Notes: generated from the letters alone by a model not told the origin. 64,000 bases of DNA from Minisyncoccota bacterium (GCA_965267345.1 OZ253947.1:138814-202813), one strand, 5' to 3'. Numbered from the stretch's first letter, positions 5,790 through 46,940 are shown. Translations and numbers: made by a program.

Positions 5790-6023
5790 TTACGATACAA
5801 GGAGATTGAGCAGTGCGGTGCCGGCGAAGAGTACACCGAGTACGATCGTCACATAAAAGAGCGTACGCTCCATGCCGCGACGTGTGTGAAAGCCCGAACT
5901 GAAGTTGTCCGCACCAAACGCTCCGCCAAGTCCCGAACCAGTCTGCTGAAGCAGAATAGTCACGATAAGCAGAATGGAGAGCGCAATCTGAATGTATGGC
6001 AATATGCCAACTAATGCTTCCAT
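5790..6023 (-). CDS. secG: Preprotein translocase subunit SecG
   Basis: About 77 aa from the internal ATG. Two TM helices with ILLQQTGSGLGGAFG, the SecG signature. Confidence 0.7.
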   Translation of the reverse strand: MEALVGILPYIQIALSILLIVTILLQQTGSGLGGAFGADNFSSGFHTRRGMERTLFYVTIVLGVLFAGTALLNLLVS

Positions 6024-6193
6024 GTGCAGCGAGTATACCAATGCTGCGCTAAATGACAAGCGCGCGACTGTGTTTTGTGAGATTTTGCATTGGGGTGTCT
6101 TTGGTTTTATACTAACCACACTTTGCGTGTGTGCTCGCTCTGCGCGTGTATGCACGCAGCATTTACGAGAATAGCCTAGACAAAAAAACAGCT

Positions 6194-6472
6194 ATGGCAA
6201 AAACGAATGTGAAGCCACTGGGGGACCGCGTGCTCGTCACGCCGATTCAGGAGGACATAACGTCGCCTGCGGGTATTATCATTCCTGATACGGCACAGCG
6301 CGAGAAGCCCAAACAGGGGAAAGTTGTTGCTGTCGGAGAGCTGAAAGAGGTGACGGACATTACGGTAGGCGACACAGTACTCTTCAGTGATTTTGGTTTT
6401 GATACCGTAAAGGTAGGTGATACGGAATACTACATTATTCGCAGCGAAAACCTGTTAGCAGTTGTTAAATAA
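6194..6472 (+). CDS. groES: Co-chaperonin GroES
   Basis: MAKTNVKPLGDRVLV..GIIIPDTAQEKP.QGKVVAVG. Start taken at the internal ATG of ORF 6131..6472. Confidence 0.95.
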   Translation: MAKTNVKPLGDRVLVTPIQEDITSPAGIIIPDTAQREKPKQGKVVAVGELKEVTDITVGDTVLFSDFGFDTVKVGDTEYYIIRSENLLAVVK

Positions 6473-6479
6473 GAAACGT

Positions 6480-8135
6480 ATGGCAGCAAAAAAAGTACTG
6501 TTCAATCACAAGGTGCGTGCGGCGCTGAAGCGCGGTGTTGACACGGTTGCCGATGCGGTACGCGTTACACTCGGCCCACGCGGACGTAATGTGGCACTTG
6601 CCAAAGGATTTGGCGGACCAACCATCACCAACGACGGTGTTTCGATCGCAAAAGAAATTGAGCTTGCTGACCCCTTTGAAAATATGGGGGCAGAGGTCAT
6701 CAAGGAAGTTGCCAGCAAAACGAATGACAAAGCAGGTGACGGTACCACCACCGCAATGGTACTCACCAGTGCAATCATCACCGAAGGCTTTAAACGAACG
6801 GCCATGGGCGCGAATGCAACCGTGGTGCGCCGCGGCATTGAAGCTGCAGCACGAGACGCCGTTGCTGAATTGCAGTCACTCGCCAAGCAGGTAAAGGGGA
6901 AAGAAGAGATTCGCAATGTGGCGAAAATTTCCGCCGAATCCGATCGTCTCGGTAAGGAAATTGCTGACACCATTGAAAAAGTCGGGAAAGACGGCGTGGT
7001 GACGGTTGAGGAATCGCAATCACTCGGTATTGAATCAGAGGTAGTCGAAGGACTCGAATTCGACCGCGGCTACGTGTCACCGTATATGGTGACCAACTCA
7101 GAGCGCATGGAGGCAGAGATGAAAGATGCAGCGATTCTGGTTACCGACAAAAAGATCTCAAGCGTGCAGGAGATTCTGCCGCTGCTTGAGAAACTGGCGC
7201 AAACCGGCAAGAAAGAGCTCACCATCATTGCTGATGATGTGGAAGGCGAGGCACTCGCGACATTTGTCGTGAACAAATTGCGCGGGGCGTTTACCGTACT
7301 GGCAGTGAAAGCCCCCGGGTACGGTGACCGCAAGAAAGAAATACTTGCCGACATCGCAACGGTTGTTGGCGCCGATGTCGTGTCGGAAGATCTTGGACGA
7401 AAGCTCGAAGAAGTCGACATGGCGGTACTGGGACGCGCGAGTCGCGTTGTGGCACGAAAAGACACAACCGTGATCGTTGGCGGTAAGGGCAAAAAGGCAG
7501 ATGTGCAGTCGCGCGTTGCGCAAATGCGTGCACAGCTTGCCAACACCGACTCGAAATACGATCGTGAAAAAATTGAGGAGCGCATTGCCAAGCTCAGCGG
7601 TGGTGTGGCAGTCATTCGCGTTGGTGCAGCAACGGAGACAGAAATGAAGTACCTCAAGGACAAGATTGAGGATGCCGTGAATGCAACCAAGGCAGCCATC
7701 GAAGAGGGTATCGTACCCGGTGGTGGTACCGCGCTGGTCAAGGTTGCCGCAAAACTCAGCAAGAGTAAGCACATGAACACACACGACGAGTTTTCAATCG
7801 GCTACCGCATTGTGGTTGACGCACTGCGCGCGCCGCTGACGCAGATTGTGACCAACGCCGGTCGCGATGACGCACAGGTCATTTTGCGTGAGATCGTAAG
7901 CAAGGGCGGCAACTACGGCTTTGATGCGTCCAGTGAAGACCACGAGGCACGCATCATTGACATGCTCGCCGAAGGCATTATTGATCCGGTGAAAGTGACC
8001 CGTAGTGGTATTGAAAATGCAGCGAGCGCGGCGGCTGTACTCCTCACGACTGAAGCAGCTGTGGCTGAAGATCCTGACGAAAAGGAGGAGCCACCTGCAA
8101 TGCCAGCCGGCGGCGGCATGCCCGGCATGATGTAG
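6480..8135 (+). CDS. groEL: Chaperonin GroEL
   Basis: MAAKKVLFN..AVKAPGYGDRKK..GGG, ending in a GGM-type tail (PAGGGMPGMM). Start at the ATG 9 nt after the groES stop. Confidence 0.97.
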   Translation: MAAKKVLFNHKVRAALKRGVDTVADAVRVTLGPRGRNVALAKGFGGPTITNDGVSIAKEIELADPFENMGAEVIKEVASKTNDKAGDGTTTAMVLTSAIITEGFKRTAMGANATVVRRGIEAAARDAVAELQSLAKQVKGKEEIRNVAKISAESDRLGKEIADTIEKVGKDGVVTVEESQSLGIESEVVEGLEFDRGYVSPYMVTNSERMEAEMKDAAILVTDKKISSVQEILPLLEKLAQTGKKELTIIADDVEGEALATFVVNKLRGAFTVLAVKAPGYGDRKKEILADIATVVGADVVSEDLGRKLEEVDMAVLGRASRVVARKDTTVIVGGKGKKADVQSRVAQMRAQLANTDSKYDREKIEERIAKLSGGVAVIRVGAATETEMKYLKDKIEDAVNATKAAIEEGIVPGGGTALVKVAAKLSKSKHMNTHDEFSIGYRIVVDALRAPLTQIVTNAGRDDAQVILREIVSKGGNYGFDASSEDHEARIIDMLAEGIIDPVKVTRSGIENAASAAAVLLTTEAAVAEDPDEKEEPPAMPAGGGMPGMM

Positions 8136-35944: not shown

Positions 35945-38116
35945 ATGCATCTCAAGCGCATAGAGCTGTCAGGATTTAAGTCATTTGCGAAAAAAGGTGC
36001 GCTTGAATTTACGTCACCCATTGCCGCTATTGTGGGGCCGAACGGCTCAGGCAAGTCAAATACTGCAGAAGCATTTCGCTTCGTACTCGGTGAGCAGTCA
36101 ATGAAGGCCATGCGCGGCAAGCGCGGTCCCGATTTAATCTGGTCGGGGAATGAGCGCACGCCACGGGCAAACCGTGCGCGGGTGACGGTGGTGTTCAACA
36201 ATACCGACCGCTTTTTAGATATTGATTTCGAAGAAGTGGCGATTGAGCGTAGCGTGTATCGTGATGGTGCCAATGAGTACACGATCAACGGAAGCAAGGT
36301 TCGCTTGAAAGATGTTGCCGCACTCCTTGCCGGCGCAAATATCGGCGGCTCAGGGCATCACATTATTTCACAAGGAGAAGCTGACCGTATTCTCGGTGCC
36401 TCGCCGCGCGAACGCCGCGACATGATCGAAGACGCACTCGGCCTTAAAACGTATCAGTACAAAAAGGTCGAAAGCGAAAAGAAGCTTGAAAAAACGATTG
36501 AAAACGTCAAAGACGCCAAGGGGCTGCGACGGGAGATTGCGCCGCACCTTGCCTTTTTGCAACGACAAATGGAAAAGCGCGAACGGGCGCAACAGCTTAC
36601 TCACGAACTTGCCGAACACTACGCTGTGTACTGCGCTACTGAGGCCGCGCGTCTTGATGCTGAGGAGCAGCGCATACGCGAAGCACGCACGCAGCCGACC
36701 GATGCACTTGCGGCCATTGAGCGTGCGCTCAAACAGCTCCAGACGCAGCACACCACAGCAACACAGGCAGAGCAGACGAAACCCCTAAAAGACATTGAGA
36801 CACGCCGCCACCAACTGATGGAGGAAACTGCGTCACTGGAACGTGCACGCGGGCGCATTGAAGGACAGATTGCGCTCGTTGAAAAGAATACGCGCGCGGC
36901 GTCAGGCGAGTCGCATGTGGCGTTTGGTACAGTACGCACGGAATTGGATCACATCAAACAGACGCTCACCCGCGTTGCAGAAACCGGCAATACCGATGAA
37001 CTCAATGCGGTTATCACCCGCATCGACGCATTTTTGCAGACACATGCTGACGATACGACTGGCGCCGCACACGACACTGAGGCACTGGCGCAGGAACTGC
37101 GCGACGAACGACACGCAATTGAAGCCTCATTGCAGAAAGTGGCTGAACAGAGTGCGACGCTCGAGAATGAGTACACGGCACTCATGCAGACGATTGAGCA
37201 GGAGCGTGCGCAAGAGCGCGAAGCGCAGAAAGAACTCTATGAGTATCGTGAACAAAAACGTGAACGTGAACGCGAACTCGAAGCACTTGACCGCGAACAC
37301 GCGCAACTCACCCAAGAGCGCAATGAGTTGGCGGCGGTACTTGAAGACGCGCGCCGCGTGTGCGATGAGAGCTCGCTCGCCGGCGCACCTGCACACGAGG
37401 CGGCAACGCGGACGCAGCAGCGTGAGCGTTTGCGCGAGATCGAACGTATTACAGTGCGCCTTGATGAGGCAGGTGTGGTTGATGAAGATACAGTGAAAGA
37501 GTTTGATGAAACACAAAAGCGTGATGCCTTTCTTGAGCGTGAAATTGCCGATCTGGAACAGTCGCGACAGCAGCTCCTCGATATCATTGCGCAACTCGAG
37601 AGTGAGATTGCGACACGATTCACTCATGGTCTCGAAAAAATTAATGGCGAATTTCAGACGTTCTTTGCGATGCTCTTTGATGGCGGCAAGGCAAAGCTGC
37701 ACATAGTCAAGAAAGAGCGTGCAACTGACGAGGAGGGTGACGATGATGCCGACGAGGGGAAAGAGGGTATTGATATTCAGGTGCAGTTGCCGCGTAAGAA
37801 AATCACCACACTTGATGTCCTTTCAGGTGGTGAGCGCGCACTAACGTCAATTGCACTGATTTTTGCGATGTCACAGGTTAATCCACCGCCATTTATCATT
37901 CTCGACGAAACAGATGCAGCGCTCGATGAGGCGAACTCGCGTAAGTACGCCGATATGGTGCGGACTCTCTCGAAGCACAGTCAGCTCATTTTAATTACGC
38001 ACAACCGCCAAACCATGGAAGCTGCCGGTGAACTCTACGGGGTCACCATGGGGAGCGACGGGATCTCAAAACTGCTCTCAGTAAAATTTGACGAAGCAGT
38101 CCAAGTGGCTAAGTAG
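35945..38116 (+). CDS. smc: SMC-family chromosome segregation ATPase (short)
   Basis: Walker A (GPNGSGKSN), long coiled coils, ABC signature (LSGGERALTSIAL) and Walker B (FIILDETDAALD). About 723 aa. Confidence 0.72.
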   Translation: MHLKRIELSGFKSFAKKGALEFTSPIAAIVGPNGSGKSNTAEAFRFVLGEQSMKAMRGKRGPDLIWSGNERTPRANRARVTVVFNNTDRFLDIDFEEVAIERSVYRDGANEYTINGSKVRLKDVAALLAGANIGGSGHHIISQGEADRILGASPRERRDMIEDALGLKTYQYKKVESEKKLEKTIENVKDAKGLRREIAPHLAFLQRQMEKRERAQQLTHELAEHYAVYCATEAARLDAEEQRIREARTQPTDALAAIERALKQLQTQHTTATQAEQTKPLKDIETRRHQLMEETASLERARGRIEGQIALVEKNTRAASGESHVAFGTVRTELDHIKQTLTRVAETGNTDELNAVITRIDAFLQTHADDTTGAAHDTEALAQELRDERHAIEASLQKVAEQSATLENEYTALMQTIEQERAQEREAQKELYEYREQKRERERELEALDREHAQLTQERNELAAVLEDARRVCDESSLAGAPAHEAATRTQQRERLREIERITVRLDEAGVVDEDTVKEFDETQKRDAFLEREIADLEQSRQQLLDIIAQLESEIATRFTHGLEKINGEFQTFFAMLFDGGKAKLHIVKKERATDEEGDDDADEGKEGIDIQVQLPRKKITTLDVLSGGERALTSIALIFAMSQVNPPPFIILDETDAALDEANSRKYADMVRTLSKHSQLILITHNRQTMEAAGELYGVTMGSDGISKLLSVKFDEAVQVAK

Positions 38117-38693
38117 TAGGCGCTTGTTTTTTCAGAAGGCGTACTTCTTTCCCTTTGAAGTCACGAAGCATATCTTCTAGCGAAGAGACCATGATCTCTC
38201 CTGCACGACCGTATACGGATATAAAGAGATTTTTCCCAACGGAGACGGCAGCGTGGTGGAAGTGCGTGTATTTCTCCTCGGGCGTAATAATTACAATCAC
38301 ATCTCCCTGATGTAAATGTTTTGGTAGAGGCAGTATTTCAAAGTGCTTGTTCAAATCATTTTGCGAATAGAAAGGTTCGCCCATCACCATACAGGCGAAA
38401 CTGAAACAATCCTTATCCAGGTGTTTCCCTTGTGCAACCATCCTCAAGTACCCACTTATTGCGTGTGCGACAAAATCAGGTATATCTAGTCGCTTTTTGC
38501 GCCAAGTTTTTTCCAAATATAACTCGATGTCATGAGCGTTCTCAAGATTTTTGAGCGATGAGAGTTCAATGACAGGGTCTTTTGCATGTCGGTGCACGCC
38601 AACTTTGTGCACGTCCATAATATAGCCGTCCTCCGTTTGTACGGATCCTTTTTCCTTGCCAATGACGAGTTTAGTTGCAGGTCTTTCTCGCAT
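38109..38693 (-). CDS. Hypothetical protein in an AT-rich islet
   Basis: 194 aa. No confident family match. Local GC is clearly below the flanks. Conserved-looking Cys and His (CFSFACMVMG .. THFHHAAV). Confidence 0.35.
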   Translation of the reverse strand: MRERPATKLVIGKEKGSVQTEDGYIMDVHKVGVHRHAKDPVIELSSLKNLENAHDIELYLEKTWRKKRLDIPDFVAHAISGYLRMVAQGKHLDKDCFSFACMVMGEPFYSQNDLNKHFEILPLPKHLHQGDVIVIITPEEKYTHFHHAAVSVGKNLFISVYGRAGEIMVSSLEDMLRDFKGKEVRLLKKQAPTT

Positions 38694-40799: not shown

Positions 40800-41082
40800 A
40801 CGTATCTTGTAGCACCTTTGCACAGAAATCGTAGGCGCAACTTATCAACAACTAGTCGCGGTGTGTGTCTGTGCTAGAATAGCGAACAGGTGTTCGTTCG
40901 CTCTCTCTAACAGGAGGGCGCGGCCGCACGCCTCAATTTTGGAGGGGTGCGGTATTTTTTACCTGACCGGTAGATTAGAACGCACAAACCGATCAGTGTC
41001 AATCACGCCGAGAATGACGGAGCAGCAGAAAAGGCAGAAACTATAGACATTGGATATTATTTTGCTATAGTTGCGCGCACAT

Positions 41083-41574
41083 ATGTTGAAAATTCGATTA
41101 CAACGAGCCGGACGACGCAACGACCCAACATTTCGTGTTGTGGTGACCGAGCACACACACGGCCCAAAGAGCCAGAAACACGCAGACCGTGTTGGTTTCT
41201 ACAACCCAAAAACAAAAGAGAAAGAGCTTGATGCAGAGCGCATCACCTACTGGATTAACAATGGTGCACAGCCGAGCCCGACGGTACACAACATGCTCGT
41301 GAAGGCAGGTATCATCAAAGGTGAGACAATTAACGTATTGCCACAGAAGTCGCCGGTGGTGAGCGAGGAAGAGCAGCAGGAAGCTGAGGAGGTTGCAGCC
41401 GCAGAAAGCGAGGCCGCACCTGCAGCAGAGGGCAGCGATACGAGCGAGGAGCCGGCAGCGGAACAAACGGAAGAGGAGCAACCGGCAGCTGAAGAAACCC
41501 CCAAGGCAACAGAAGAGGAACCAGCAGAAGCTCCAGCCGAAGAAGCGGCTGAAGAGGAGAAGAAAGAGGGTTAA
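41083..41574 (+). CDS. rpsP: Ribosomal protein S16 with Glu/Ala-rich C-terminal extension
   Basis: MLKIRLQRAGRRNDPTFRVVV..; C-terminal 70 aa of E/A/P-rich low complexity. Confidence 0.9.
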   Translation: MLKIRLQRAGRRNDPTFRVVVTEHTHGPKSQKHADRVGFYNPKTKEKELDAERITYWINNGAQPSPTVHNMLVKAGIIKGETINVLPQKSPVVSEEEQQEAEEVAAAESEAAPAAEGSDTSEEPAAEQTEEEQPAAEETPKATEEEPAEAPAEEAAEEEKKEG

Positions 41575-41663: not shown

Positions 41664-42083
41664 ATGGAACAAGATCAGGAATTTCTGGAATTCGTTGTGA
41701 AGGCGTTGGTAGACAACCCGAACGACGTGAAGATTAACCGTACGGTAGATGAGATGGGCGTTCTGCTCACCCTCGATGTGAATAAAGACGATATGGGTAA
41801 GGTTATTGGTCGCGCAGGTAACACTGCTAAGGCCATTCGTACCCTGTTGCGCGTTGTTGGCATGAAGCACGACGCACGTGTCAATCTCAAAATTAACGAG
41901 CCGGAAGGCGGTATGCCAACAGCAGCAGCTGCCGGCGCTGCAGCTATGGAAGCCGCACCAATGGCAGCCGAGGCTGCAACTCCTGAGCCAGCTGAGCAAC
42001 CACAGGAGGAAGAAATGAGCGACGAAGAGCGCAGTGCAGCATCAAAATCAGTTGACGAGGCAATGAAAGACCTTGGGCTTTAG
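41664..42083 (+). CDS. KH-domain RNA-binding protein (YlqC/UPF0109-like) with Ala/Glu-rich tail
   Basis: LLTLDVNKDDMGKVIGRAGNTAKAIRTLL (KH GxxG loop). Conserved position between rpsP and trmD. Confidence 0.75.
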   Translation: MEQDQEFLEFVVKALVDNPNDVKINRTVDEMGVLLTLDVNKDDMGKVIGRAGNTAKAIRTLLRVVGMKHDARVNLKINEPEGGMPTAAAAGAAAMEAAPMAAEAATPEPAEQPQEEEMSDEERSAASKSVDEAMKDLGL

Positions 42084-42189: not shown

Positions 42190-42834
42190 ATGATTCACTT
42201 TCATATCATTACACTCTTTCCCGAGTCAATCGAGTGCTATTTCAACGCCTCCATGCTCAAGCGCGCTCAGGCGGACAAAAAAATACGCGTGTCATTCTAC
42301 AATCCACGTGACTACACGACTGACAAACATCGCCGCGTTGATTACCGACCGTACGGCGGCGGCCCGGGGATGGTGCTGGAAGCCGAGAGCGTCTTGCGAG
42401 CTGCTGAAGCAGCAATTGGCCGTAAAAAGGATGTGGAGGTGATCTTTTTCTCGCCAAGCGCCAAGCAGTTTGAACAAAAAGACGCAGTGCGCATTGCAAA
42501 AAAAGCAAAGCACGTTGTCTTTCTCTGCGGGCACTACGAAGGCATTGATGCTCGTGCTGTTAAGATTTTAAAGGCGAAGCCACTTTCAATTGGTCCGTAT
42601 GTGCTCACTGGTGGGGAGTTGCCGGCGGCACTTGTTGCCGATGCGGTTGCGCGTAATGTTGAAGGAGTGCTTGGTAACGCCGAGTCACTTGAAGACTCAC
42701 GTGTTGCTAGCCCAGAAGTGTACACGCGCCCCGAGGTATTTGAATGGAAGAAAAAGAAGTACCGTGTGCCAAAGGTGCTCGTCTCCGGACATCACAAAAA
42801 AATAGAAGAGTGGAAAGCAAAAAAGAAAAAGTAG
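42190..42834 (+). CDS. trmD: tRNA (guanine37-N1)-methyltransferase
   Basis: MIHFHIITLFPE .. YGGGPGMVL is the SPOUT/TrmD signature. Confidence 0.92.
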   Translation: MIHFHIITLFPESIECYFNASMLKRAQADKKIRVSFYNPRDYTTDKHRRVDYRPYGGGPGMVLEAESVLRAAEAAIGRKKDVEVIFFSPSAKQFEQKDAVRIAKKAKHVVFLCGHYEGIDARAVKILKAKPLSIGPYVLTGGELPAALVADAVARNVEGVLGNAESLEDSRVASPEVYTRPEVFEWKKKKYRVPKVLVSGHHKKIEEWKAKKKK

Positions 42835-43085
42835 CCCGCTACCCAACAGTACTACGCAATAAGTTATAGCTCTCCTTCTATAGGAACTGACGCTCTTACC
42901 ACCCCATGCACCAGATCCCGCACGAGGACCGCCCTCACGCAAACAAGGTCGGTCCTTGTTGCAACGGAAAACCGGCGGGGTTGGGGAACCCGCCGGCATT
43001 GGTGGTGTTTAGCTTGGCCCTACAAATACTTTTGCGAAAATCAAAAGGCAATTTAGGTGAGTACAATGTGTGATAATGTAGTCGT

Positions 43086-43547
43086 ATGACAGAAGGAAAA
43101 GATTCAGACTATGAGAAGTTTCTTAGGGCAGCAGGTACTGACTTAGACGAAACCACAATAATTCTACGTTCACATCTTTTGGCGGAGTACTATCTTGACC
43201 ACTTTTTGCTTGAAAGTTTAGCGCGTGGTGATTTGATAACTGATAGCAGAATCACATTCTCCACTAAACTCCAAGTGGTAGAGGCTCTAGATATTCTCCC
43301 CCGAGCTTTTGTTGATTCGGTCAGAAATTTAAATGTAGTGCGCAACAGGTGTGCTCACAGTCTAGATTACAAAGTAACCGAATCTGACATAGATAAAATT
43401 GGACGACCTTTTGGAAAAGACTATCGAGAGATGAAAAGGGAGCACGAGCACAATAACAAAGAACTTTTGCATTGGACCATGGGAATGATCTTCGCAAAAA
43501 CAAGCGGGAGGTTGAGAGGTATCACTAGTGCCGCGAGTGAAGAATAA
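43086..43547 (+). CDS. HEPN-like protein (RNxxAH motif; Abi/DUF4145-like) in an AT-rich islet
   Basis: 153 aa, all-alpha composition. VVRNRCAHS matches the Rx4-6H HEPN signature as found in AbiD/AbiF and DUF4145 families. The local AT-rich stretch contrasts with the flanking GC content. Confidence 0.5.
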   Translation: MTEGKDSDYEKFLRAAGTDLDETTIILRSHLLAEYYLDHFLLESLARGDLITDSRITFSTKLQVVEALDILPRAFVDSVRNLNVVRNRCAHSLDYKVTESDIDKIGRPFGKDYREMKREHEHNNKELLHWTMGMIFAKTSGRLRGITSAASEE

Positions 43548-43590
43548 AACTGCCTTGGCAGATTTAATCTCGGGAGACGTTTGACACCCT

Positions 43591-43619
43591 TGCGCCTATA
43601 GGCTAGAATACCGCCATCT
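43591..43619 (+). promoter_or_regulatory. Sigma70-type promoter upstream of rpoB (leader of about 140 nt)
   Basis: TTGACA, a 17 nt spacer, then TAGAAT. Confidence 0.5.
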
Positions 43620-43766
43620 TTTTGACGATTGTGTCACGGGTGCAATAAAAAGAGTTTTAATACAAGTGTGTTGTGCGGCTAACCAATGTGCCGCGTAACT
43701 CTTTTACTAGGTGTGTGTAATTAGAAAACGAGAACGCTCGGTGGAGCGATTCTTGTGCTGTGTGTT

Positions 43767-46700
43767 ATGAGCAAAACCACGCTTCCTAAGAAGTACTTCG
43801 GTCAGTTTACCGAAAACATGACCGAGACGCCAAACCTTGTGCGTGAACAACTCGATTCGTACGAGTGGCTCATCGAAGAAGGAGTCAAATCTGTCTTCGA
43901 CGAGTTCTCGCCGATTGCCGACTACTCCGGCAAAAAGTTCGACCTGAGCATTTCCAAGTTCAGTTTCGGCAAGCCTGAGTACGACGAGCACTACGCAAAA
44001 CTCAAGCGACTTACCTACAAAATCCCGCTGCGCATTGATGCGAAGCTGGTGAATAAGACAACAGGAGAAACCAAGAGCCAAGAAATCTTCATGGCCGACT
44101 TCCCGTACATGACCGATCACGGTACGTTCATCATCAACGGTGTTGAGCGTGTGATCGTGCCGCAGCTTGCGCGTTCCTACGGCGTATTCTTCCTGAAGAA
44201 TCTGCTTAAGGGTGCCGAGTACTTCGGTGCGAAAATTATCCCCGCACGTGGCGCATGGGTGGAGATCGAAAGCGAACCGGATGGTGCCATTTACGTCAAG
44301 ATTGACCGCAAGCGCAAATTCTCCGTTACCATTTTGCTCAAAGTCTTCGGACTCGAAACACCTGAGAAAATGCAGAAAGCATTTAAGGGCGTGAAAGGCG
44401 CTGAGGATGTTCTGAAGGCATCACTCGACCACGATGCAACCGAAACACTCGACGACGCTTACATCGAAATCTACAAGCGCCTTCGCGACGGCGACTTGGC
44501 GACACCGGAAAATGCTCGCGAGTTTGTCAACAGCATCTTCAGCGAAGATCGCTACGACCTGTCACGCGTTGGTCGCTACCAGTTCAACCACCGCTTCGGC
44601 CTTGAAACAAAGGAGAAAGCACTCGGCGACCAGATTCTCTCACAGGACGACATAGTACGCATCGTCAGCAACATTATTGAGCTCAACAACACACCACACG
44701 CACAAGAGGACGACATCGACCACCTTGGCTTTCGTCGCGTGCGCTACGTTGGTGAAATGATGCAGCACCAAGTACGCATTGGTATGAGCCGCATGAAGCG
44801 CAACATCCAAGACCGCATGTCTACCGTTGATGTTGAGACGAGTTTGCCGATTCAGTTCATCAACCCACGTCCGTTCCAAGCGGCGATTATGGAGTTCTTC
44901 TCAACGAACCAATTGTCGCAGTTTATGGATCAGAACAACATCCTCGGTGAGCTGGAGCACTTGCGTACACTCTCGGCACTCGGTCCCGGAGGACTCACAC
45001 GTGAGCGTGCGGGCTTTGACGTTCGCGACGTGCACACCAGTCACTACGGACGCCTCTGCCCAATTCAGACACCGGAAGGTCAGAACATCGGTCTGATTCT
45101 TCGCTTGGCCGTCCACGCGCGCCTCAACGACTTTGGTATTATCGAAACACCATACGCGCGGGTCAAAAACGGCAAGGTGACAGACGAAATTGTCTACCTC
45201 AACGCACTTGAAGAAGAAGAGCACCTTATCGTGCACGCAGCAACAAAGCGCGACAAGAGCGGTAAGATTCTTGCCGACCTTGTTGAAGCGCGCCGCCACG
45301 GTGAGCCGGAATTCGTCTCACCAAATGACGTTGCCTTCATTGAAGTGGCAACGAACCAAGCTTTCTCGGTGGCAACAACCATGATTCCATTCCTTGAGCA
45401 CGACGACGCAAACCGTGCGCTCATGGGTTCGAACATGCAGAAGCAGGCAACACCATGCGTGGTGCCCGAGGTGCCGTTCGTCGCCACCGGTATTGAAGAG
45501 AATGCTGCGCGCGACTCAGGGCGCCTCATTATTGCCGACGAAGCGGGTACCATCACCTACGCAGATTCACGCAAGATTGTCCTGAAAGACACCAAAGGTA
45601 AAGAGCATGAGTACTCACTCGTAAACTTCTCGCGCACCAACAACATGTCGGTACTGCACCAGCGTGTGTCGGTGGCGGTCGGCGACAAGGTCAAGCGCGG
45701 CGACGTCTTGGCCGACAACTCATCGAGTGTTGACGGACAAATTGCCATCGGGCAAAACGTGCGTGTCGCATTTATGTCATGGGCCGGCGCAAACTACGAG
45801 GACGCGATTGTCATCTCAGAGCGTCTGGTGAAGCAGAGTAAATTCACGACGATTCACGTAGAAGAGTTCGTTGCGTACGTACGCGACACCAAGCTCGGCC
45901 CTGAAGTGACCACACACGACATTCCAAACGTAAGCGAGATGAAGCTTCGCAACCTCGACGAAGAGGGCGTGGTACGCATCGGTGCGGAGGTACGCCCCGG
46001 TGATATTCTGGTTGGTAAAGTCACCCCAAAGGGTGAGACACAGCTGACACCGGAAGAGCGCCTGCTACGTTCTATCTTCGGTGAAAAGGCAAAAGACGTG
46101 AAAGACACGTCACTGCGCATGGAAGCAGGGAAGCGCGGCCGCATTGTTGGCGTGCGTGTATTCTCACGCGAAAATGGCGACCAGCTCGAGAGCGGCATCA
46201 TCAAGCGTATTCACATTGAAGTTGCACAGCTCCGTAACGTGTCAGTCGGTGACAAGCTCGCCGGTCGTCACGGTAACAAGGGTGTGATCTCTCGTGTCCT
46301 TCCTGAGGAAGACATGCCGTACACGAAAGACGGTGAGCCAATTGACATCATTCTGACACCGCTGGGCGTGCCAAGTCGTATGAACTTGGGACAGATTCTT
46401 GAAATGCACCTCGGGCTCGCTGCCGGTGAGCTCGGCTATCAGGCTATCGTGCCGCCATTCTCAGGCACCACAGAAGACGAAATCGTTGCCGAACTCAAGG
46501 CGGCGGGATTCCCTGAGAGCGGAAAAATGACACTCAAAGACGGTCGCACGGGCGAAGCATTCGATCAGGACATTGCGGTCGGCAATATGTACATCTTGAA
46601 GCTGCACCACATGGTGGAAGACAAAATCCACATGCGCTCGGTTGGACCATACTCAATCACGACGCAGCAGCCACTCGGTGGTAAGGCCCAGAACGGTGGT

Positions 46701-46940
46701 CAGCGAATCGGAGAGATGGAAGTGTGGGCATTCCTCGGCTACGGTGCGGCGTACGCACTGCGGGAAGTGCTCACCATCAAATCTGACGACATTCTGGGAC
46801 GTTCAGCAGCCTTTGACGCCATTGTGAAGGGCGAGCGTATCCGCCAGCCAAACGTGCCGGCGACCTTCAACGTGTTGATTCGTCACCTGCGTGGTTTGGC
46901 ACTGGACATCAATTTAGAAAAAGATAGCGAGACTAAGTAG
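43767..46940 (+). CDS. rpoB: DNA-directed RNA polymerase beta subunit (compact form)
   Basis: Full set of rpoB conserved blocks, including the rifampicin-region-like segment. 1058 aa from ATG 43767. Confidence 0.97.
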   Translation: MSKTTLPKKYFGQFTENMTETPNLVREQLDSYEWLIEEGVKSVFDEFSPIADYSGKKFDLSISKFSFGKPEYDEHYAKLKRLTYKIPLRIDAKLVNKTTGETKSQEIFMADFPYMTDHGTFIINGVERVIVPQLARSYGVFFLKNLLKGAEYFGAKIIPARGAWVEIESEPDGAIYVKIDRKRKFSVTILLKVFGLETPEKMQKAFKGVKGAEDVLKASLDHDATETLDDAYIEIYKRLRDGDLATPENAREFVNSIFSEDRYDLSRVGRYQFNHRFGLETKEKALGDQILSQDDIVRIVSNIIELNNTPHAQEDDIDHLGFRRVRYVGEMMQHQVRIGMSRMKRNIQDRMSTVDVETSLPIQFINPRPFQAAIMEFFSTNQLSQFMDQNNILGELEHLRTLSALGPGGLTRERAGFDVRDVHTSHYGRLCPIQTPEGQNIGLILRLAVHARLNDFGIIETPYARVKNGKVTDEIVYLNALEEEEHLIVHAATKRDKSGKILADLVEARRHGEPEFVSPNDVAFIEVATNQAFSVATTMIPFLEHDDANRALMGSNMQKQATPCVVPEVPFVATGIEENAARDSGRLIIADEAGTITYADSRKIVLKDTKGKEHEYSLVNFSRTNNMSVLHQRVSVAVGDKVKRGDVLADNSSSVDGQIAIGQNVRVAFMSWAGANYEDAIVISERLVKQSKFTTIHVEEFVAYVRDTKLGPEVTTHDIPNVSEMKLRNLDEEGVVRIGAEVRPGDILVGKVTPKGETQLTPEERLLRSIFGEKAKDVKDTSLRMEAGKRGRIVGVRVFSRENGDQLESGIIKRIHIEVAQLRNVSVGDKLAGRHGNKGVISRVLPEEDMPYTKDGEPIDIILTPLGVPSRMNLGQILEMHLGLAAGELGYQAIVPPFSGTTEDEIVAELKAAGFPESGKMTLKDGRTGEAFDQDIAVGNMYILKLHHMVEDKIHMRSVGPYSITTQQPLGGKAQNGGQRIGEMEVWAFLGYGAAYALREVLTIKSDDILGRSAAFDAIVKGERIRQPNVPATFNVLIRHLRGLALDINLEKDSETK

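Follow-up and report, generated by a model that had tools for sequence, protein, structure and literature searches.

The locus described here raises the question of what a short, AT-rich gene is doing between two core genes, trmD and rpoB, of a bacterium from the Minisyncoccota. The stretch of DNA analyzed, 64,000 nucleotides in length (GCA_965267345.1, OZ253947.1:138814-202813; hereafter the window), carries in this interval an open reading frame (ORF) for a 153-amino-acid protein, ORF153. An initial annotation, made from the sequence alone, had described it as an all-alpha HEPN protein of the AbiD/AbiF or DUF4145 type, inserted horizontally at the place where rplS would normally follow trmD. 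Our analysis points to a somewhat different answer: with moderate confidence, we regard ORF153 as a putative horizontally acquired, single-gene HEPN ribonuclease (RNase) of the HepS type, which sits in a variable cargo slot of a Kaiserbacteria-like genome and would act in defense by a HepS-like mechanism.

Fold, family, and closest characterized relative of ORF153

The AlphaFold2 (AF2) monomer model of ORF153 was all-alpha, comprised eight helices, and had a predicted local distance difference test (pLDDT) score of 89 and a predicted template modeling (pTM) score of 0.83; its N terminus was variable and of low confidence, while its C terminus was helical. A Foldseek search of the Protein Data Bank (PDB) with this model returned HepS as the best match (9oij_A; template modeling [TM] score 0.69, probability 1.0), followed by the HEPN-fold proteins YggD and MtlR (PDB 3brj, 3c8g, and 6kcr; TM score 0.57–0.67, probability 1.0). 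Residues 84–92 read VVRNRCAHS and thereby contain R86-N87-R-C-A-H91, a motif of the Rx4–6H type that is characteristic of the HEPN superfamily and was nearly invariant in an alignment of 166 family members. As judged from the model and the alignment, ORF153 is predicted to adopt the HEPN fold, and its Rx4H motif is conserved; this part of the initial annotation held.

Seventeen close homologs of ORF153 were found (128–181 residues, 35–54% identity). A profile search of the family covering 1.84 billion cluster representatives (clusters at 50% identity) gave 2,682 matches at E ≤ 1e-3, 466 at E ≤ 1e-10, and 79 at E ≤ 1e-30, nearly all of them single-domain proteins of 120–210 residues. The 166-sequence alignment, in which the median length was 167 residues, revealed that R86 (165/166), N87 (162/166), H91 (163/165), and E34 (162/163) are almost always retained, that H30, K61, and N83 are likewise nearly invariant, and that the full motif is kept in 161 of the 166 sequences. 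These nearly invariant positions establish that a HEPN-type Rx4H site is under purifying selection. The family is essentially unannotated, being without a Pfam, NCBIfam, or PADLOC model, and its taxonomic range as given here is based on one named Gottesmanbacteria protein together with the affiliation of the window itself. One member (P0063, 350 residues) consists of two HEPN units in tandem that arose by duplication, and both R-N-x-C-x-H motifs are retained, so that it may form an intramolecular “dimer.”

The AbiD/AbiF (Pfam Abi_2) and DUF4145 proteins share with ORF153 a HEPN motif of the RNxxAH type, are known from the context of abortive infection or restriction, and were its top Pfam matches, which would fit true membership in one of these families, as initially proposed. 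Abi_2 matched ORF153 with 14.2 bits (E 0.055, residues 59–92 only) and DUF4145 with 13.9 bits (E 0.057); among 18 family members, DUF4145 was matched by nine (best E 4.7e-4) and Abi_2 by four, with HEPN_Cthe2314 appearing as well; and PHROG 2158, labelled “abortive infection resistance protein,” matched ORF153 at E 0.051. However, all Pfam matches of the family members were sub-threshold, the scores of ORF153 fell below the curated gathering cut-offs (25.6 bits for Abi_2 and 23.1 bits for DUF4145), and the aligned parts spanned just 34–49 residues around the motif, with only the motif helix aligning. In length, AbiD/AbiF proteins are roughly double ORF153, and DUF4145 usually occurs in fusion with, or beside, restriction-modification components. 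Neither PADLOC nor NCBIfam contained a model that matched ORF153, whereas PHROG 5483, a family without an assigned function, matched it at E 2.7e-11. As HepS is also a far better match (see below), we consider membership in Abi_2 or DUF4145 quite unlikely.

HepS (“HEPN Solo”) is a single-protein abortive-infection anticodon nuclease of the Salmonella prophage Gifsy-1 (PDB 9oij and 9oik; Sargen et al., Nature 2026, PMC13043305). It forms a tetramer in which the R100/H105 sites are buried, it is opened allosterically by the siphophage tail-tip protein J, which binds a beta-sheet made of the N- and C-terminal segments, and it then cuts tRNAs in their anticodon loops. Neither a partner nor an inhibitor gene accompanies it, and its expression by itself is not toxic (PMC13043305). 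The trigger is bound by S13, D15, and Y20 as well as by S202 and T203, the tetramer interface involves F66, K78, and L83, K71 contacts tRNA, and I107 is a switch residue (PMC13043305). When the PDB was searched with hmmsearch, an 18-sequence profile of the ORF153 family recovered HepS at E 2.2e-7, and a 133-sequence profile recovered it at E 6.3e-9 as the sole significant match. With hhalign, the family scored 93.7% over 121 columns against HepS and 96.4% (E 1.2e-9) in a second comparison, the HepS reference being a 188-residue composite of two partial HepS fragments with an unreliable C terminus. The residues R86, N87, H91, E34, K61, and L93 of ORF153 were paired with R100, N101, H105, E48, K76, and I107 of HepS, respectively, so that the two proteins have in common the R-N-x3-H motif, the glutamate of helix 1, a lysine, and a hydrophobic residue two positions after the catalytic histidine. 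By these alignments, a core of about 87–120 residues of ORF153 is significantly homologous to HepS. The profile searches suggested for this protein therefore uphold its assignment to HEPN though not to the families named at first, the closest relative in both profile and fold being HepS. Both proteins are single-domain HEPN proteins encoded without a partner, and both genes are mobile and compositionally foreign, with relatives in temperate phages. ORF153 is a distant HepS homolog that, by analogy, would most likely act along the same general lines, as a solo RNase that stays latent.

The trmD–rpoB interval in Kaiserbacteria-like genomes

The TrmD protein of the window shares 80–86% identity with proteins encoded in Candidatus Kaiserbacteria and Parcubacteria assemblies; as far as this protein sequence indicates, the genome is therefore Kaiserbacteria-like and belongs to the candidate phyla radiation (CPR). 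We compared the window with five Kaiserbacteria-like relatives (L110, L111, L112, L113, and L118; TrmD 81–86% identical), which came from a protein search; a scan of TrmD in GTDB representatives yielded only distant ones, with identities of up to 55%. All five relatives share the order rnr (minus strand), rpsP, KH-domain gene, an optional gene, trmD, cargo, and rpoB. The cargo of one relative is unrelated to that of the next, and with the window included, the distance from trmD to rpoB varies between 932 and 4053 nt. The slot measures 932 nt in the window, with ORF153 as a solo HEPN cargo; 1241 nt in L113, with two small minus-strand ORFs whose products read as hydrophobic; 1974 nt in L112, with three small ORFs and a NUDIX gene; 2142 nt in L110, with AbiLi and an AbiLii-like protein; 3118 nt in L118, with small ORFs and a hydrolase-like protein; and 4053 nt in L111, with Ham1, a purH fragment, a MazE-like protein followed by a 135-residue ORF, and purD.

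The cargo of L110, whose TrmD is 84% identical to that of the window, is an AbiL system (5843–7498), in which AbiLi was recognized by PADLOC at E 3e-64 and the adjoining 157-residue AbiLii-like protein at E 0.002. AbiL is a known abortive-infection system and occupies the identical slot; however, its proteins are unrelated to ORF153, and it is a two-gene, ATPase-based system composed of the AbiLi ATPase and AbiLii. Just upstream of rpoB, three relatives encode a highly conserved protein of 61–62 residues (MKTRKRLGENLVRKL...; L111, 7312–7500; L112, 6768–6953; L118, 8240–8425), which is missing in L110 and L113 as well as in the window, and whose L111 copy shows a faint match to Pfam MazE_antitoxin. 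Separately, in a TrmD homolog of 308 residues (P0172, 72% identity), the sequence is interrupted behind approximately residue 45 by a GIY-YIG domain (PF01541), which suggests a homing-endonuclease-type insertion within trmD of a related genome.

At the DNA level, the window is homologous to its relatives up to the stop codon of trmD and again from the −35 box of rpoB onward, with a conserved hairpin in between. The −35 box, the −10 box, and the downstream leader of rpoB are conserved in L111, L112, and L113, in agreement with the consensus promoter that had been noticed at the outset (cf. Table 1). Replacement of one cargo by another would proceed by homologous recombination via the conserved genes on either side.

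The canonical operon is rpsP-rimM-trmD-rplS, and the initial annotation had taken rplS to be displaced by the insert. The gene for ribosomal protein L19 (rplS) was indeed present beside trmD in 49 of 84 trmD loci, which served as a positive control for the search query, an Escherichia coli L19 sequence; however, it was found in none of the six Patescibacteria loci covered by this search. With the same query, tblastn gave only noise in the window and no remnant of rplS. Furthermore, L19 is absent after trmD from the gene tables of all five relatives, in which no trmD–rplS junction was found, and trmD of a Saccharibacteria relative is followed by a convergent dnaE. The statement that rplS normally follows trmD is thus correct for many bacteria but not for the Patescibacteria loci examined, and because rplS follows trmD in no Patescibacteria relative examined, we conclude that it was not displaced. 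The comparison of these loci identifies ORF153 as an apparent insertion into a variable slot and not as a replacement of rplS. Since this slot holds a different cargo in every relative, the most likely role of ORF153 is that of a compact suicide nuclease directed against phages.

The composition of the gene also points to an insertion. The GC content of ORF153 is 0.416, compared with a window mean of 0.531 (SD 0.028; z −4.05); only 0.17% of all 462-nt segments are equally low in GC, and the minimum over the 64 kb starts at 43021. The GC content at third codon positions (GC3) is 0.383 in ORF153 versus 0.50–0.64 in rpsP, the KH-domain gene, trmD, rpoB, and rpoC. The AT-rich islet of the initial annotation is therefore real and has the lowest GC content in the window. 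Homologs of ORF153 have a GC content below that of their flanks in 18 of 20 loci (z down to −3.9), and their neighbors differ each time and are ordinary housekeeping genes (groES/methyltransferase, peptidase M16, ftsH, CSD/msrA, and others); the closest homolog (61% identity) is located elsewhere, after ftsH. Distant relatives are found in temperate phages, namely as orf29 of phiCTX, in the accessory region between tail gene D and the regulators, and as gp60 of the Mycobacterium phage IdentityCrisis; the match to PHROG 5483 (see above) belongs with these phage relatives. On an IMG/VR contig, another distant relative abuts ORFs that, by reading and not by a family-library scan, look like a phage-type integrase and a repressor-like protein. 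The slot in the window contains no integrase or transposase, a repeat search revealed neither direct or inverted repeats marking a transposon or integration site nor tandem repeats, and tblastn found no remnants of the relatives' cargo genes. Taken with the absence of the gene from the slot in all five relatives, the foreign composition, the differing contexts of the homologs, and the variability of the slot agree with the proposed horizontal insertion, and ORF153 looks horizontally acquired.

Alternatively, ORF153 might be a housekeeping or regulatory HEPN-fold protein, such as an MtlR/YggD-like regulator or an RNA-processing factor, whose place between trmD and rpoB, on the same strand, would reflect its function. 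YggD and MtlR, the next-best structural matches, do have the same all-alpha fold and a similar size. However, the absence of ORF153 from the slot of the relatives, the unrelated contexts of its homologs, and its foreign composition all argue against this possibility, as does the observation that the family profiles match HepS and neither MtlR nor YggD, while the catalytic R/N/H residues are nearly invariant. MtlR and YggD are, moreover, mannitol-metabolism regulators of proteobacteria and not mobile solo genes. We therefore consider a housekeeping role improbable.

The spacer between trmD and ORF153, described initially as 250 bp long, GC-rich, and structured, proved to be 251 nt long. Its overall GC content of 0.51 lies under the mean of the window, and a value of 0.57 is reached only over the first 176 nt. 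The fold of the whole spacer had a z of −1.46, and 12 of 200 shuffled sequences folded equally well, so that, apart from a single hairpin, the spacer was dropped as a structured RNA element. Rfam searches at gathering thresholds found nothing in the spacer or ORF153, and at E ≤ 10 they gave only small nucleolar RNA and microRNA matches of chance level; the segment 42835–42967 showed neither a coding signal nor an RNA-family signal. The hairpin that follows it (cf. Table 1) is flanked on the plus strand by an A-run on its 5' side and a weak T tail on its 3' side, and on the minus strand it is followed by a T-run. It is kept in L113 at 2342–2392 (78% over 51 nt), with a compensatory change from G:C to A:U in the stem. 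In L113 the hairpin sits after a minus-strand ORF of 78 residues, and the window has no minus-strand gene for it to terminate. The window copy may be a relic, or it may serve the trmD operon as a bidirectional terminator.

Solo status and possible mode of action

No ORF of at least 70 residues was common to 20 family loci, the HEPN gene itself being the sole family shared by unrelated contigs, and a second pass over 22 loci, in which ORFs of at least 30 residues were considered within 700 nt on each side, revealed nothing shared beyond near-identical contig pairs. A gene for a minimal nucleotidyltransferase (MNT) antitoxin was present neither in the window slot nor at any family locus examined. 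These results agree with the earlier description of a stand-alone gene with no visible antitoxin. They also bear on the possibility that ORF153 is the toxin of a toxin-antitoxin module, either HEPN/MNT-like or paired with an RNA or very small antitoxin, and serves as an addiction or stress element instead of in phage defense. HEPN toxins with MNT antitoxins are common, ORF153 is mobile and compositionally foreign, and the slot of L111 holds a small MazE-like protein followed by a 135-residue protein without an assigned family. However, besides the lack of a nucleotidyltransferase or any other conserved neighbor, there are no repeats able to encode a type III RNA antitoxin and no Rfam match, and HepS, the closest characterized homolog, needs no antitoxin (PMC13043305). 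A toxin-antitoxin module is thus an unlikely explanation.

For a HepS-type nuclease, a mode of action can be outlined by analogy with HepS and from general knowledge of HEPN proteins. ORF153 would oligomerize, so that R86 and H91 of two protomers would form a composite RNase site, and its latency would be kept by its own conformation and not by an antitoxin. A phage-derived cue would then switch the protein on, the active form would cleave cellular RNA, with tRNA anticodon loops as the best guess, and this cleavage would abort the infection.

Several observations weigh against such a reading. RNase activity, latency, the trigger, and phage defense are all properties that we infer for ORF153. 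Its identity with HepS is 22–25% and limited to the core, the Foldseek E-values were modest (7e-3), and PADLOC, as stated above, gave no match. ORF153 has 153 residues versus at least 203 in HepS, and the trigger-binding strands of HepS, made up of residues 1–34 and of the residues past about 157, have no counterpart in it, the alignments covering HepS 35–157. In the hhalign register, F66, K71, and K78 of HepS are opposite I51, I56, and Q63 of ORF153 and appear not to be conserved. HepS is borne by a prophage, whereas ORF153 belongs to a CPR bacterium and is flanked by core genes, trmD and rpoB, and no phage genes were seen in its neighborhood in the window. Finally, a consensus scan found no full −35/−10 promoter upstream of ORF153, the expression of which is presumed. 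Since ORF153 is without the trigger-binding termini of HepS, it probably responds to another trigger and is activated in another way.

A possible extended −10 element, TGTGATAAT, was read directly from the sequence 8 nt 5' of the ATG of ORF153; at this distance, it would yield a leaderless or near-leaderless mRNA. No obvious Shine-Dalgarno sequence precedes ORF153 or rpoB of the same genome. The lack of a consensus promoter and of an evident Shine-Dalgarno sequence, together with a length of 153 residues compared with the family median of 167, could also mean that ORF153 is no longer functional and is decaying, as what is left of an earlier insertion. However, its frame is intact, every nearly invariant residue of the family is kept, the structural model is confident over the full length, and rpoB, too, does without an obvious Shine-Dalgarno sequence. 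We consider a remnant very unlikely.

Genomic surroundings and significance of the locus

The features of the region are collected in Table 1. The wider surroundings consist of core housekeeping genes (nusB, rnc, smc, rnr, dnaG, and rpoD), and a 644-kb contig is on record that carries ORF153 in identical form. ORF153 and rpoB are separated by 207 nt of non-coding DNA, and rpoB is followed by rpoC. A mechanical listing of ORFs opens rpoB at GTG 43755, while the alignment with the relatives places the conserved start at ATG 43767.

Table 1 Features of the trmD–rpoB region, with positions counted from the first nucleotide of the window
Feature	Position	Strand	Remarks
rpsP (S16, C-terminal tail acidic), start of the conserved core block	41071-41574	+	Pfam Ribosomal_S16, E 3e-16; same position in L110-L113 and L118
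KhpA-type KH-domain protein	41664-42083	+	Pfam KH_KhpA-B, E 1.3e-21
trmD, left anchor of the variable slot	42190-42834	+	Pfam tRNA_m1G_MT, E 4e-43
Non-conserved spacer 3' of trmD	42835-42967		GC about 0.57; no blastn match to relatives
GC-rich terminator-like hairpin	42972-43000		Folds at -18.5 to -19.7 kcal/mol
Possible extended -10 element	43069-43077	+	Read directly from the sequence
ORF153, predicted solo HEPN-domain protein, low-GC cargo of the slot	43086-43547	+	153 aa
Codons of the putative HEPN Rx4H catalytic motif, R86-N87-R-C-A-H91	43341-43358	+	Aligns with HepS R100-N101-x3-H105
rpoB promoter TTGACA-17-TAGAAT, right anchor of the slot	43581-43609	+	11/12 consensus matches
rpoB	43767-46940	+	Start most likely ATG 43767

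Some features of the neighboring genes are worth recording. The S16 protein has 167 residues owing to a long Glu/Ala-rich acidic C-terminal tail, and the tail of the KH-domain protein is Ala/Glu-rich and weakly matches the Ribosomal_60s (acidic P-protein) profile (E 8e-4). Between smc and rnr, the second-lowest-GC stretch of the window contains an ORF of 194 residues on the minus strand (38109–38693), for which no Pfam or PADLOC family scored above threshold, the sole hint being NlpC/P60 at E 0.04. At the same position, relatives have other small genes (a 55-residue DUF6693 protein in L110 and a 154-residue protein without an assigned family in L111), and the smc–rnr interval may be a second variable slot.

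As for what is new, HEPN nucleases have been known in defense for longer than HepS. Solo HEPN abortive-infection nucleases are already known since the 2026 HepS paper, which gives 393 homologs of HepS (PMC13043305). HEPN solo nucleases and variable gene slots are thus both known concepts, and nothing is overturned by the present findings. What appears to be new, as judged from sequence comparisons, is an unannotated family that is linked to HepS, is present in CPR genomes, and is without the sensor termini of HepS, and also the recognition of the Kaiserbacteria trmD–rpoB interval as a variable slot that carries AbiL as well. The large family (2,682 clusters at E ≤ 1e-3) is tied to the characterized HepS only via profile and fold comparison. 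As a tentative and still doubtful extension, it might represent a miniature (about 150 residues), CPR-wide branch of HepS-type solo HEPN immunity, comprising over 2,600 clusters at 50% identity, nearly all without annotation, and using a distinct sensing mechanism, and the Kaiserbacteria trmD–rpoB interval might be an unrecognized defense or accessory hotspot, with AbiL in one relative and HEPN here. Without the trigger-binding termini of HepS, such a family would have to sense infection differently.

CPR bacteria have tiny genomes, and to our knowledge few recognized anti-phage systems have been reported in them. If the present reading is true, a HepS-type sensor and effector combined in a single gene of 150 residues would provide economical immunity for cells with such genomes. 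The variable slot between trmD and rpoB is a concrete place for seeking further accessory and defense genes in Kaiserbacteria and, if it is indeed a hotspot, it could be a source of immune genes from lineages that are believed to have hardly any.

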